Of a stretch of DNA of 64,000 nt, positions 5,684 through 61,536 are shown piece after piece; positions within the stretch are counted from its first letter, which is position 1, and the number at the start of each line of letters is the position of its first letter. A model generated the notes under the pieces. The model was not told where the DNA came from. It ran no database searches and was given only the letters and a program-made list of their open reading frames with translations. A program made the translations under genes and the position numbers. This stretch comes from an uncultured Opitutales bacterium (lineage in GTDB: Bacteria > Verrucomicrobiota > Verrucomicrobiia > Opitutales > CAYWEO01), in contig CAYWEO010000001.1 of assembly GCA_964457855.1 (NCBI GenBank), positions 81,747 through 145,746 on the forward strand, given 5' to 3'.

Positions 5684-5822
5684 GGGACTTCCGAACCTTT
5701 CAAAGAAAAGTCATATCGGAAGGCATTTTTGTGGCACAGAGTGCCAAAAAATGCCTTTCGAATTAAGAGTTTTTTTGGAAAGGGTACGGGAAAACCTATT
5801 TTTGCAAAAAATGGTTTTCCCG
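5684..5822 (+). repeat. F1 triple-hairpin mosaic repeat (A truncated; B, C intact)
   Basis: Right half of A only (about 5684-5710). B 5717-5760 (apical stem GTGGCAC/GTGCCAA). C 5787-5822. Confidence 0.85.
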
Positions 5823-5871
5823 TATAAAAATAGTTGATTCTCGTGAAAAAATATCTACTTTAGTCAGGATC

Positions 5872-6549
5872 ATGGGGAAGCATTTTTGGAATTTGTTGAT
5901 GGGGTGCGTGTTGGCGGTGTTGATTTCTGGGTGTGGGAGCACGACGGGGTTGAGTCCGAAAGATACGATTACGAAGGATGGGTATCAAGAGGGGCCCGAT
6001 TTTGTGGCGCCTGGGACTGCAGGAGGGGCTGGAGGAGCTCAGGGCGTGAATGGGGATTCCGCGACAATGCAGACGACAGGAGGTATGCCGGCGGAGCGTG
6101 ATGAGGCGTTTTTGAAGGGTTTGCAGGGGGATGTTTACGATTTAGTGAAGGGGAAAGAGGCGCAAGTAACGGTTTATTTTGAGTTTGACCAATCGGCGAT
6201 TCGGCCGAGCGATCGCGAGAAATTGCGCCAGTTTGCGGAGAGTTCCCATGGGGATGGGCGGTTTATTATCGTGGGTTGTTGCGACTGGTTTGGGCCGCGC
6301 GAGTACAATTTGGGTTTGGGCGAGAGACGGGCGAACGCTGTTATGAATTACTTAAAAATGATTGGCTTCATAAGTCCAATTGAAGTGTTGTCACGCAGCA
6401 ATTTAGATGCCGTTCAGGGATTATCCCGCGAGGATGCTTGGCGGGATCGCAATGGGGGCGTTTATAAGCTTCCTGGAAGTTCATCATCGAATGCGGGTGC
6501 TTCGACGAGTGCCACGGCGCCAGAAAATACTACAGATGTTGCTCAATAA
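5872..6549 (+). CDS. pal: peptidoglycan-associated lipoprotein (OmpA-C domain)
   Basis: Lipobox LISGC near the N-terminus. OmpA-like C-terminal domain (YFEFDQSAIRP, NLGLGERRANAV). Confidence 0.8.
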   Translation: MGKHFWNLLMGCVLAVLISGCGSTTGLSPKDTITKDGYQEGPDFVAPGTAGGAGGAQGVNGDSATMQTTGGMPAERDEAFLKGLQGDVYDLVKGKEAQVTVYFEFDQSAIRPSDREKLRQFAESSHGDGRFIIVGCCDWFGPREYNLGLGERRANAVMNYLKMIGFISPIEVLSRSNLDAVQGLSREDAWRDRNGGVYKLPGSSSSNAGASTSATAPENTTDVAQ

Positions 6550-6560
6550 GAACCGTTTGA

Positions 6561-7751
6561 ATGGGATTTTGTCGAGAGTTTTTCAAGAAAACTTCCGAAT
6601 CCTTCGAGCGGTTGATTGTGGATGTCATTTATGATCGAAAGACGGAGGGGTTGGGCGTTTGTTTATTGAGGTTGTTGCTGAGAGGCCTATCGTTGATTTT
6701 TACGCTCATTGTTCAAATTCGGTTGTTACTGTACAAAAACGGTCTTTTTAAGGCGCAACCCCTTGGGTGCCTAGTGATTGTTGTGGGGAATTTGACCGTT
6801 GGTGGGACTGGGAAGACGCCCGTTGTGGAGCAATTGGCGAAGGCTTTAACGCGGAAGGGGCGAAAGGTGGCGATTTTGAGCCGTGGCTACAAAAGCAAAG
6901 GAATTTCTCTTGGACGGCGGGCGCTTAATTGGCTGATTCACGCACCTGCATCGCCTCCGAAGGTGGTTAGCGACGGGAAAACGATCTTTTTGAACTCGGA
7001 ATATGCGGGTGATGAGCCCTACATGTTGGCGAAAAATCTGCAGGATGTTGTTGTCATTGTAGACAAGGATCGCGTGAAGGCAGGAAGGTACGCGATTCGG
7101 CATTTTGGTGCGGATACGTTGATTTTGGATGATGGTTTTCAGTATTTATCGCTCAAAGGGGTGCTCAATCTCGTTTTGGTCGACAAGACAAACCCTTTTG
7201 GGAACGGCAAGTTGTTGCCTTGCGGAATTTTACGTGAGCCCTTGAGCCGATTGAAGGACGCTTCGTATGTGTTGCTGACGAAATCCGATGGCGTCCGCGA
7301 TCTTCCCTTGGAAGCGATCATTCGCAAACACAATCAGGATGCGCAGCTCATCGAATGTCGTTATAAGCCAAAGTGTTTGAATGAAATTGGCGGCGAAATG
7401 ATTTTGACGTTATCGGAATTGGCTGGCCTAAAAGTCGCAAGTTTGGTGGGCATTGCGGTTCCGGAAAGTTTTGAGCAGTTTTTAGTGGAAAAAGGCGCTA
7501 AAATTGTTTACAGTAAGTGGTTTATGGACCATCATCGTTTTGACAAAGCGGATTTAAGGGAGTTTTTTCAGGCTGCCGTGGATGCGGGGGCTGAGCTCGT
7601 GCTGACGACGGAGAAGGATGCTGTCAGAATCGAGGAAAATTTTCAAAGCCAGCTGCCGTTTTACTATTTGAAGCTCGAAGTGGAGATTTTGTTGGGGAAA
7701 AATCTCGAGGATACCGTGTCGCGGATCTGCTTCCCCAAAAGCGTTCTTTAA
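6561..7751 (+). CDS. lpxK: tetraacyldisaccharide 4'-kinase
   Basis: Walker A context [13 protein letters not shown]. Length and architecture are typical of LpxK. Confidence 0.85.
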
Positions 7752-59863: not shown

Positions 59864-59946
59864 ACGACTTTGACTTTTCTTGAAAGACGGGAGATAAGTG
59901 AGGTTACACACAAATTCCCTATCATCCATCAAGGTAATCAAGGTCA

Positions 59947-61359
59947 ATGGTTCACGAACACGGACAACGATTAGAGCACGCACACAGGCAGGTCCATGTC
60001 CTCGCGCCGCAGCTGATGCTGTCCCTGAAGATTCTGCAAGCCCCAGCGGCAGAGCTGCAAGAGATTGTATTGCAAGAACTTCAGGTCAATCCCGTACTCG
60101 AGGAAGTTGCGCAAGAGGAAACAAATCTCACGTCACCAGAGGATTCAGACGTTGGTAACGAAGAGCTTACGGATCCGGATAGGGATCTTTTAGAGTATTT
60201 GGAGGGCGGCACTTTCGCAAACGCACAGAGGGAACACCGCAATCGAGAGGCGGACGAGCGCAGGCAGCATTTTTGGGACTCAATCCCCAGTGAAGTCACT
60301 CTAACGGAACATCTCATGCGTCAGGCGCGGACCGGCGAATTGACTCCCGAGGAGCTGGAAATTTTTGAGTACGTTGTGGGGAATTTGGACGATAACGGCT
60401 TCCTGTCGATGCTTTTAGAGGACATCGCTTCGGCAAAAAACGCGTCGGTAGCGGCCGTCGAAAAGGTTGTCCGTGCGCTGCAAAACATGGATCCGCCGGG
60501 CCTTGGCTGCAAGGACGTTCGCGAAAGCCTCCTCTGCCAGCTCGAAGTTTTGGGCAAAGAAGATTCCTTAGAGGCACAAATGCTTCGCGAACACTACGAC
60601 CTCCTTCTAAAGCGAAAAATTCCCGTTCTAGCAAAGATTTACGGCGTGACAACCGACGCTATTCAGGCCGCCATCAACGCCATCGGGACATTGTATTTTG
60701 CCCCGGGAAGGCGGTTCGTCCATCAACATGAGCAGTCAATCATCCCCGACGTCACTGTCGTAAAGGAAGCCGGCGTTTGGAGCATCATTTTAAACAAGGA
60801 ATCCCTCCCGCGCCTCGGCATCAGTTCCCTCTACAAACGCTTGTTAGGCAACGCTCAACTTGCCACAACCGAGCGCGCCTACATCAAGGGGAAAATCCAC
60901 TCTGGCCGCCTCTTCATTCACGCCATCGATCAAAGGCAACACCTCCTCCAACGCATGACCGAGAAACTCCTCGAATTCCAACGAGATTTTTTCGAGTCCG
61001 GAATCTCCCACCTAAAACCCCTCAAAATGCAAGAAATGGCCCACGCCCTCAACGTTCATGAGACCACCATCAGCCGCGCCGTTTCCAACAAGTACCTCGC
61101 GACCCCCCACGGAATCCTTCCGTTCCGCTCCCTCTTCACCAGCGGCATTCCCAACAACGACGGCGATGTCATCTCCAGCACCACCATCAAGGAATCCCTA
61201 CGCAAACTCATTGCCTCCGAACCCCCCTCCTCCCCCCTCTCAGATCAACAACTCTCCCGCCTCCTCACCAAAAACAACACCCCCATCGCCCGCCGTACCG
61301 TCTCCAAATACCGCGAAGAGTTGGGCATCGCGTCGGCAACGCTGAGACGTGAATATTGA
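59947..61359 (+). CDS. rpoN: RNA polymerase sigma-54 factor
   Basis: N-terminal Gln/Leu-rich region I (LAPQLMLSLKILQAPAAELQ). C-terminal HTH and RpoN box (ARRTVSKYRE). Confidence 0.9.
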   Translation: MVHEHGQRLEHAHRQVHVLAPQLMLSLKILQAPAAELQEIVLQELQVNPVLEEVAQEETNLTSPEDSDVGNEELTDPDRDLLEYLEGGTFANAQREHRNREADERRQHFWDSIPSEVTLTEHLMRQARTGELTPEELEIFEYVVGNLDDNGFLSMLLEDIASAKNASVAAVEKVVRALQNMDPPGLGCKDVRESLLCQLEVLGKEDSLEAQMLREHYDLLLKRKIPVLAKIYGVTTDAIQAAINAIGTLYFAPGRRFVHQHEQSIIPDVTVVKEAGVWSIILNKESLPRLGISSLYKRLLGNAQLATTERAYIKGKIHSGRLFIHAIDQRQHLLQRMTEKLLEFQRDFFESGISHLKPLKMQEMAHALNVHETTISRAVSNKYLATPHGILPFRSLFTSGIPNNDGDVISSTTIKESLRKLIASEPPSSPLSDQQLSRLLTKNNTPIARRTVSKYREELGIASATLRREY

Positions 61360-61363
61360 TTTT

Positions 61364-61536
61364 CCGGAGGGGGTGTTTTTTGCAAAAAGCACCCCCTCCG
61401 GGCCTCCCCCTTAAAAACTCTTAATTCGAAAGGCATTTTCATTTGGCCTTACAGGCCAAATGAAAGTGCCTTTCGATATGCTTTTCTTTTGAAGGTTCGG
61501 AAACTTCTTCTTTTCTCTGGAAAAGAAAAGTTTCCG
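61364..61536 (-). repeat. F1 triple-hairpin mosaic repeat, full copy (C-B-A)
   Basis: C 61364-61401. B 61427-61475 (apical stem CATTTGGCC/GGCCAAATG). A 61498-61536. C starts 4 nt after the rpoN stop. Confidence 0.9.

Follow-up and report, generated by a model that had tools for sequence, protein, structure and literature searches.

A family of three-hairpin intergenic repeats whose stems stay paired while their sequence drifts, in a 64-kb stretch of an uncultured bacterial genome

The intergenic spaces of a 64-kb stretch of contig CAYWEO010000001.1 (assembly GCA_964457855.1; hereafter the window, with position 1 at its first letter) carry a family of structured, non-coding repeats, each built from three hairpins, A, B and C, in a fixed order. 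The stems of all three hairpins stay paired while their sequence drifts, pairing is almost exclusively of the Watson-Crick type, the loop of hairpin B is exactly inverted between two closely similar copies, and hairpin modules reassort between copies. We lean, with modest confidence, towards an element that is propagated or maintained via a folded DNA form, with changes to both arms of a hairpin arising at the DNA level. The closest described behaviour is that of REPINs, and our verdict is that the object represents a new family of structured intergenic repeat, similar to REPINs and to MITEs (miniature transposable elements with inverted repeats), rather than a new class of system. A previous sequence-only reading of the window had singled out the central hairpin, there called module B, as keeping a constant basal stem while carrying at least six different apical helices, changed on both arms together. 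All motifs and coordinates quoted in that reading are present in the window, and to the twelve copies that it listed we add a thirteenth, degenerate one (B at 45662-45700) that it had missed.

Module B never occurs alone, but forms the central hairpin of an element of 167-175 bp that runs hairpin A, linker, hairpin B, linker, hairpin C. Hairpin A is laid out as CCGG, a variable stem, T5-6, TGC(A), A5-6, the complementary stem and CCGG, and is followed by an A-B linker of the form ACCYYYCC-A(n)-CTCTTAAT; the B-C linker reads TATNGCTTTTCTTTTGAAGG, and hairpin C is laid out as TTCGGAAAC-TTCTTCTTTTC-loop-GAAAAGAAAAG-GTTTCCGAA. The feet of the hairpins read TTCGGAAGG, CCGGGAAAAC and TTCGGAAAC, with a motif YCGGRAA / TTYCCGR common to all three hairpins and all six arms, and T-tracts and A-tracts border the loops. 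Hairpins A and C, each ~38-43 nt long, have only an 8-10 nt foot, CGG(G)AAA(A)C, in common.

The window contains 13 copies, or about one per 5 kb, eight with the element on the + strand and five with it on the - strand, none of them coding (Table 1). Ten copies are complete, and the remaining three (c5717, c45664 and c53831) are truncated or degenerate. The order A-B-C is the same in every copy, and no solo A, B or C module of the family was found in the window. All three hairpins fold in every full copy, and a whole copy folded as DNA reaches -63.7 kcal/mol (z = -12.1 relative to shuffles). A search pattern of the form GGCATTTTT-N(4-30)-AAAAATGC gave 15 matches, counting both strands, and none in 100 shuffles.

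Because MAFFT did not keep gaps in the left arm in step with those in the right, covariation was scored on a structural alignment in which arms were anchored by hand at the foot and the loop and padded with N, a procedure that assumes hairpin symmetry and is hence biased towards structure. In hairpin B (13 copies, 24 pairs), 96.5% of cells are paired and 15 of the 24 pairs are changed on both sides (41 cells, a count of sequences and not of independent events), with a covariation score of 0.365 compared with 0.130 after shuffling. Hairpins A and C covary as strongly: 95.9% of cells are paired in A, with 9 of 18 pairs changed on both sides and a score of 0.444 (0.165 shuffled), and 96.1% in C, with 10 of 20 pairs doubly changed and a score of 0.348 (0.161 shuffled). 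In none of the three hairpins did any of 500 shuffles attain the observed percentage of paired cells, number of doubly changed cells or covariation score, and sliding the partners in B by one to three columns gave pairing of 30-50% and at most three doubly changed pairs. Independently of the anchoring, a run of MAFFT and RNAalifold on the ten full copies recovered these hairpins as well, all three of them; 20 of the 57 pairs that it predicts are compensated. The sequence-only reading had proposed that pairing is preserved while sequence changes; this is confirmed well above the shuffled and slid-partner controls, and it applies to all three hairpins, not only to the tip of B to which the effect had been tied.

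Sequence conservation is distributed unevenly over the element. Copy-to-copy identity is 56-63% in the tip arms of B, 37% in the B loop and 41-43% in the variable stem of A, but higher in the basal stem of B (~90%), the B-C linker (88%) and the T-tract of A (100%). Over the variable apical columns of B, the two arms within one copy are ~93% complementary, whereas the same arms are 56-63% identical between copies, and the comparison of arms with copies that the sequence-only reading had suggested comes out clearly in favour of the arms, with a within-copy complementarity of ~93-95%. The tips fall into ~8 variants, which are homologous rather than unrelated: a GGC:GCC core is shared by 10-12 of the 13 copies, three groups can be distinguished (GGCA(C), GGCC and GGGCGC), and the distance from the basal GGCA to the apical GGC core defines length classes of 9/9, 7/7 and 6/7 nt (left/right arm). 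Nor is the basal stem fully constant, since 6 of its 13 pairs are doubly changed in at least one copy (18666, 25824, 61427 or 45664). At pair position 4, four copies have A-T in place of G-C, and a G·T and an A·C intermediate occur once each; the basal stem of c25824 is, as had been claimed, rewritten on both arms, with four compensated pairs. Uncompensated helix mismatches are C·A on the + strand in 18666, 24073 and 53831, A·A in 25824 and T·C in 55141. Because the variants are inherited subfamily markers and modules reassort between copies, there are fewer independent events than variants. This reassortment makes the element a mosaic: an A type with GGGAAAACC is paired both with GGCC and with GGCAC tips of B, and a C type with CTGTTC is found together with several A types and several B types.

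Summed over A, B and C, the aligned pairs comprise 645 Watson-Crick cells, 9 cells with G·T, 11 with A·C and 15 of other kinds; the last two classes include bulges that had to be forced into the alignment. With G·U at ~1.3%, wobble pairs are not tolerated on the element strand, unlike in typical structured RNAs. Between c18666 and c61427, the section from A through the linker to B has just five point differences over ~100 columns, yet the loop context of B reads CTGTAAG in the former and CTTACAG, its exact reverse complement, in the latter. The loop of hairpin A is self-complementary in most copies (TGCA or TATA), hairpin B is palindromic through its centre in c32001 (25-nt perfect arms only 2 nt apart) and in c15828 (no spacer), and in about 5 of 11 copies the sequence flanking A on its left repeats the A-B linker imperfectly in inverted form. 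The loop inversion, the palindromy through the centre and the inverted flank of A point to symmetry at the level of DNA.

Loop inversion, multi-base compensated changes and stem extension together have been described as the footprint of replication template switching (PMC8794818), and the sequence-only reading had offered copying of one arm from the other as an alternative to selection on a folded structure. Evidence from the window bears on both of these alternatives and does not fully separate them. In its strict form, arm copying would be a purely mutational homogenisation, in which one arm is recopied from the other by intra-strand template switching or gene conversion and the fold itself is under no selection. 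Such a process, for which a mechanism is thus documented, would leave Watson-Crick pairs without a wobble class and would account for the inverted loop; it would also produce palindromy at positions that cannot pair (the TGCA loop of A and the centres of B in c32001 and c15828), an A flank that resembles an outward extension of the stem, and arm lengths that shift symmetrically between tip classes, as from 9/9 to 7/7 nt. An antiparallel conversion between copies via the palindromic stem would, however, be an equally good source of the loop inversion.

Other features of the same hairpins do not fit with frequent recopying. The right arm of hairpin A is 1 nt longer in 10 of 11 copies, at the junction of foot and T-tract, where A, T, G and C all occur as the additional base, and the left arm of hairpin C is 1 nt longer in 9 of 11. 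A right arm longer by 1 nt is also common to four GGCAC-type copies of B, the loops of which have nonetheless diverged (TCT, TTC, TCC and TTC). Frequent correction from arm to arm would erase such shared imperfections at fixed positions. Either templating therefore happens no more than occasionally, or selection acts on the imperfections themselves, as it does on the extrahelical bases of attC sites and of the IS608 hairpins. In addition, ~35 mismatched cells remain uncompensated, the loops of C are pyrimidine-rich, asymmetric and never inverted in any of 11 copies, and templating alone leaves the 88-100% conservation of feet, T-tracts and linkers unexplained. Homogenisation in the absence of selection therefore appears improbable to us as an account of the family. 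A further proposal, that the tips of the hairpins are rewritten by a self-templated process at the DNA level, either by fold-back or template-switch synthesis or by cleavage of the tip and refilling by an undescribed hairpin-recognising enzyme, strikes us as doubtful, if slightly less so.

The reading that we favour involves a folded DNA form. In its behaviour, the element is like a selfish palindromic repeat of REPIN or MITE type that has spread into the short intergenic spaces of the chromosome; it would be copied or maintained as folded single-stranded DNA or as a cruciform, such that only copies with intact hairpins would propagate. The foot sequence, the T- and A-tracts, the linkers and the ability to pair are conserved, and the inner stems (the tip of B, the middle of A and parts of C) can change freely provided that their arms remain Watson-Crick complementary. 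Changes on both arms could arise from the exchange of whole hairpin modules between copies, from occasional template switching or antiparallel conversion within the palindrome, which would rewrite the arms or invert the loop in a single step, or from ordinary stepwise compensation. The mobility of the element, a single-stranded DNA intermediate and any enzyme that acts on it are what we infer from these patterns.

Several observations weigh against propagation via folded DNA, some of which would at the same time suit a function of the element as RNA. No transposase, RAYT, integrase, phage or other mobilising gene is present among the ~47 open reading frames (ORFs) of the 64 kb. The terminal inverted repeat is weak, covering 8-9 nt (left (A)TTTTCCGG, right CCGRAA(T)), with no parent insertion sequence (IS) known, and no direct repeat that could represent a target-site duplication borders any of the ten complete copies. 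The sample comprises 13 copies from one window and one partial metagenome copy (see below), in which independent compensations cannot be counted. All 13 copies are intergenic, between housekeeping genes, and all five convergent gene junctions of the window are occupied, in each case with the element on the + strand, along with two of four divergent junctions and six tandem ones. In six copies, A begins 4-7 nt past the adjacent stop codon (stop codons at 10132, 24190, 32118, 48238, 55254 and 61359), always in the order gene-A-B-C and in sense orientation. Finally, where the transcribed strand of a copy can be inferred, mismatches of the transition type are G·U on the RNA in 3-4 cases versus none of the opposite kind (c24073, c5717 and c48308, with c61427 ambiguous), numbers that are too small to test.

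If the element worked as RNA, the three stable hairpins of the transcript could protect 3' untranslated regions (UTRs) or intercistronic regions from 3' exonucleases, could terminate or insulate transcription between convergent genes, or could function as a small RNA. The stop codons next to A are natural ones, as matches to protein families extend to the C-termini of the proteins. As entire gaps of 195-204 nt are taken up by the elements, these are necessarily transcribed as 3' or intercistronic RNA hairpins. Both REPs and the bcr1 repeats of Bacillus cereus have been reported to act, or to be conserved, at the RNA level (PMC3733652, PMC3184786). On the other hand, copies occur in both orientations (the tandem-pair copies comprise four sense and two antisense to transcription), and two copies lie in divergent promoter regions. 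There is no excess of wobble pairs, and neither the self-complementary loop of A nor the B palindromes through the centre are required for RNA folding. In the rnhB-MFS and lpdA-sua5 gaps, only 20-29 nt are left before the next start codon, which implies read-through rather than termination, as a strong terminator at this position would silence the downstream gene. No Rfam family matches the window at gathering thresholds. We therefore regard an RNA-level function as the primary reason for the conserved pairing as possible but rather unlikely, the most serious of the alternatives to maintenance via folded DNA.

An intrinsic terminator, in which a U tract begins within 0-2 nt of a GC-rich hairpin, was rejected as the primary identity of the element: no U tract follows the stems and the T-tracts lie inside them. 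A terminator scan of 20 kb returned 30 terminator-like sites, compared with 27.8 in shuffles, and only two module hairpins pass it. Separate from the repeat family, the window contains a canonical terminator-like hairpin at 12412-12444, of the design A7-stem-T7 (AAAAAAACGGCGGAG...CTCCGCCGTTTTTTT style), and a second one on the - strand at 43408-43443 (CGGGAACCCAC-T7A6-GTGGGTT-TTTT), the design of which is like that of hairpin A. Given these two hairpins, the host does make use of ordinary terminators.

In a further reading, the symmetry of the hairpins would reflect duplex DNA. A dimeric host protein, such as gyrase, a recombinase or a nucleoid-associated protein, would bind the elements as symmetric sites or as sites prone to cruciform formation, as has been proposed for bacterial interspersed mosaic elements (BIMEs), and its two-fold recognition would keep the symmetry. 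The foot motif on all six arms, the palindromy of A through its centre and the restriction to Watson-Crick pairs are compatible with such sites, as is a weak pseudo-dyad of the whole element, which is 61-73% identical to its own reverse complement. A dimer should, however, conserve its half-sites, yet the inner stems are only 41-63% identical between copies. Since these stems vary and only their complementarity is kept, intramolecular pairing is indicated rather than base-specific recognition of the duplex, and we consider the duplex explanation very unlikely.

In comparison with described systems, REPINs come closest. These are REP doublets that form hairpins and are mobilised by RAYT transposases, as in Pseudomonas and E. 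coli. Like REPINs, the present element is non-coding, extragenic and of high copy number, and occurs in both orientations and mostly downstream of genes. Its outer sequence is highly conserved and its inner hairpin variable, its two end units may stand in inverted symmetry about that hairpin, and alternative clover and long-hairpin folds are possible. Compensated variation is seen in the central hairpin; A and C are alike only in the foot and are not near-identical inverted REPs. By definition (PMC3733652), a REP is a short palindrome that carries GTAG or CGTC as a tag at one end, and neither GTAG/CTAC nor CGTC/GACG is found at any hairpin foot; the absence of a RAYT from the window and the Chlamydiota-like host are further differences. 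With respect to MITEs, the size (below 500 bp), the non-coding nature and the 13 copies in 64 kb all agree.

Going by their descriptions, the bcr1 repeats of B. cereus, enterobacterial ERIC, Neisseria Correia and pneumococcal BOX repeats resemble the element in being 100-200 bp long, interspersed, intergenic, modular or mosaic, and of strong predicted secondary structure. The element differs from them in having no target-site duplication, weak terminal inverted repeats and three hairpins that fold separately instead of a single long stem closed by terminal inverted repeats, and a likeness in sequence to these families is not expected. The pneumococcal BOX elements are specific to Streptococcus and their modules are not known to be hairpins individually; the likeness to BOX (boxA-boxB-boxC, in which boxA and boxC pair together) goes no further than the modular layout. 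The structure of bcr1 has been found to be maintained by compensatory changes of base pairs (PMC3184786), and the combination of constant ends with a compensated variable stem is thus already described, both for REPINs and for bcr1.

Imperfect hairpins near both ends and the absence of a target-site duplication recall the ends of IS200/IS605 elements and their miniature derivatives, which are processed as folded single-stranded DNA. There, as here, stem imperfections lie at conserved positions, comparable to the extrahelical bases recognised by TnpA, and Watson-Crick pairing outweighs sequence; unlike in these elements, there is no Y1 HUH transposase in the window, no fixed cleavage or target tetranucleotide emerges from the copies, and the large central hairpin has no counterpart. 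The attC sites, which act as folded single-stranded DNA, similarly combine a conserved base and extrahelical imperfections with a 'variable terminal structure' of free sequence but kept pairing. The element differs from attC in lacking a GTTRRRY core, gene cassettes and an integrase, and its flanking genes are core housekeeping genes (such as eno, leuS, proS, rpoN and recA). Lastly, compensated changes over several bases, an extended stem and an exactly inverted loop, all seen in B, resemble the template-switch signatures mentioned above, which were described for single-copy RNA genes across species (PMC8794818), in contrast to the paralogous repeat copies within one genome analysed here.

The best match of the window's LeuS in the protein database is 63% identical, and hence the searchable collections hold no close sequenced relative. 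In the two nearest relatives available, both distant (LeuS 62-63% identical, order leuS-lpxI kept), the element is absent from the 2 x 22 kb examined. Short-read Logan contigs with identical proteins (SRR21799889-98 and SRR12261223/4) end ~30 nt past the stop codons, inside hairpin A, and contain no additional copies; the repeats break short-read assemblies of this organism. A scan of genome collections with the 14-base arm TCGGAAGGCATTTT gave chance matches in unrelated genomes, with the hairpin present at none of 118 loci. A metagenome scan with the 23-base B-C linker returned a single contig (Ga0182028_1274942), which carries a partial copy at positions 1-90. This contig begins within B, in its right arm (AGTGCAAAAAAATGCCTTTCGA, a further variant of the tip), and continues with a B-C linker and a hairpin C of the kind usual in the window. 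The DNA around it is AT-rich and also codes for a leucine-rich-repeat (LRR) protein. The partial copy places the family in at least one other environmental organism.

A viral scan returned nothing, plasmid and phage collections showed no similarity, and 588 aa of concatenated open-frame translations of the element had no match in the protein database at E <= 1. Below the Rfam gathering thresholds, c24073 (24073-24189, +; B plus A) scored 38.7 bits for the chlamydial small RNA IhtA (RF02569; gathering 76) and 32.2 bits for FuFi-1 (RF02986; gathering 59.6). We judged the former to be due to chance as it rests largely on the GGAAGCC/GGCTTCC stem extension unique to this copy, with no match in any other; the latter, likewise confined to this one copy, was also judged a chance match. 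A literature search yielded no description of the family, and the genome paper on Estrella lausannensis does not mention such repeats. In the distant relative GCA_964508215.1 (LeuS 62%), single hairpins with a design like that of A and C occur at 21093-21136 and 4759-4791, with a GC foot followed by TTTCTTTT / AAAAGAAA tracts (for example, TATGGAAATCCTTTCTTTTTGCGCAAAAAGAAAGGATTTCCATA), and there is no three-hairpin element. These single hairpins may hint that the modules derive from hairpins typical of the lineage.

The family adds a dense, previously undescribed set of structured repeats to a Chlamydia-like intracellular lineage, in which such elements are little documented. The repeats make up whole intergenic regions, and hence the 3' UTRs or intercistronic spacers, of core genes including rpoN, proS, leuS, recA and eno. 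With constant feet and fast-changing tips, they form a convenient natural data set on whether selection brings about compensatory changes step by step or template switching produces them at once. What we consider most useful as new are the Watson-Crick-only pairing, the exact loop inversion, the imperfections at fixed positions and the tight abutment to stop codons. Were the self-templated rewriting of tips to hold true, then new apical helices would be born palindromic, and the copies, perhaps several hundred per genome if the window is typical, would constitute a within-genome record of template-switch mutation and the first REPIN-type mobile repeat of structured single-stranded DNA in a Chlamydiota-like lineage.

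Table 1. Copies of the three-hairpin element in the window. Strand is that of the element.
Copy	Span	Strand	Hairpin A	Hairpin B	Hairpin C	Sequence features	Setting
c5717	5655..5823	-	5786-5823	5716-5761	truncated after TTCGGAA	B apical TGGCAC type, loop TCT in element orientation	C adjoins copy of second repeat family
c10201	10139..10311	+	10139-10176	10200-10250	10271-10311, perfect	B apical AGTTCGGCC, 24-nt arms 100% complementary	A begins 6 nt past snf2 stop codon
c12677	12616..12782	-	12745-12782	12676-12721	12616-12656	B TGGCAC type, basal-stem G·T	divergent tyrP/usp region
c15828	15766..15937	+	15766-15803, decaying, 3 mismatches	15827-15874	15895-15937	B apical CAGGCA, palindrome through centre	
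c18666	18603..18776	+	18603-18640	18665-18715	18735-18776	B apical CATTCGGCC/GGCCAAATG with C·A mismatch, loop-closing context CTGTAAG, basal TCGAAGGGC compensated	
c24073	24011..24185	-	24148-24185	24072-24122	24011-24051	B apical GTGCGGCC/GGCCGCGC, T·G in element orientation; A with extra stem extension GGAAG/CTTCC	A begins 4 nt past proS stop codon
c25824	25762..25931	+	25762-25799	25823-25869	25890-25931	TCGAAGCGAATTTT/AAAATTCGCTTCGA as basal stem of B, both arms changed; apical GAGGCAC/GTGCCAC, A·A mismatch	
c32001	31938..32112	-	32075-32112	32000-32051	31938-31980	B apical GGTGGGCGC, 25-nt arms 100% complementary, 2 nt between	A begins 5 nt past stop codon of ORF 32118-32810
c45664	45640..45763	+	none	45662-45700, without apical stem	45721-45763, intact	degenerate; B basal stem with two compensated changes (GAAATGC/GCATTTC)	divergent LRR/efp region
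c48308	48246..48413	+	48246-48283	48307-48352	48373-48413	B GGCAC/GTGCC, right arm 1 nt longer	occupies 195-nt rnhB-MFS gap; A begins 7 nt past rnhB stop codon
c53831	53830..53905	+	none	53830-53876	truncated after TTCGGAA	partial; B CTGGCAC/GTACCAG with C·A mismatch; B-C linker present	C followed by end of second repeat family
c55141	55079..55249	-	55210-55249	55140-55185	55079-55119	B TGGCAC type, basal-stem T·C; A GGGAAACCCCC, perfect palindrome, 21-nt arms	A begins 4 nt past lpdA stop codon; sua5-lpdA gap filled
c61427	61364..61538	+	61364-61401	61426-61476	61496-61538	B apical CATTTGGCC, loop context CTTACAG	occupies 198-nt rpoN-TPR gap; A begins 4 nt past rpoN stop codon

At their outer borders, the copies show no convincing insertion motif, with TTTT to the left of A in only 6 of 11 copies. 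The genes of the window include cmk, rnpA, yidC, lpxK, lpxI, eno, clpP, sufBCD, proS, leuS, pnp, efp, rnhB, rnhC, rpsT, recA, lpdA and rpoN, as well as genes for an NTP/NDP exchange transporter, a tyrP-like permease and an Snf2 helicase. This combination, as read from gene content, appears typical of Chlamydiota, and we refer to the host as Chlamydiota-like on these grounds.

A second interspersed repeat family is present in the window, consisting of a long imperfect hairpin of ~105 nt (TTTGAGCGGCGAGT...ACGTACGTTAGTACGC...CGCGCGCCTGCTCGTCATCTCAAA) that folds with -39 to -57 kcal/mol. Full copies lie at 5558-5662, 15607-15711 and 18462-18566, and partial ones at 10873-10909, 11017-11053 and about 53900-53960. 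Two of its copies begin 7-9 nt past the stop codons of ntt and yebC, and in c5717 and c53831 an end of this second family is located 30-45 nt beyond the point at which C is truncated. A large inverted repeat at 15042-15187, with 72-nt arms that are 74% complementary and 2 nt apart, extends over the stop codon of eno. One of its arms recurs with 93% identity at 10747-10855, and the repeat may represent a third family.

At the 3' end of an 833-aa ORF (25950-28451, -), positions 25956-26004 form a perfect inverted repeat of 23 bp (CACATCGACAATGACGAATGATC) with a spacer of 3 nt. On the - strand, 32863-38771 holds an array of six ORFs of 283-350 aa that lack a Pfam match, at least two of which (33914-34966 and 35006-35857) are paralogous as judged by the DNA repeats D7 and D20, and conserved repeats of 37-81 nt are found upstream of several ORFs of the array (35882, 37004, 37749 and 38770). 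Within the DUF4097 gene (51576-52532), two tandem copies of ~110 nt at 52071-52291 are 73% identical to each other.

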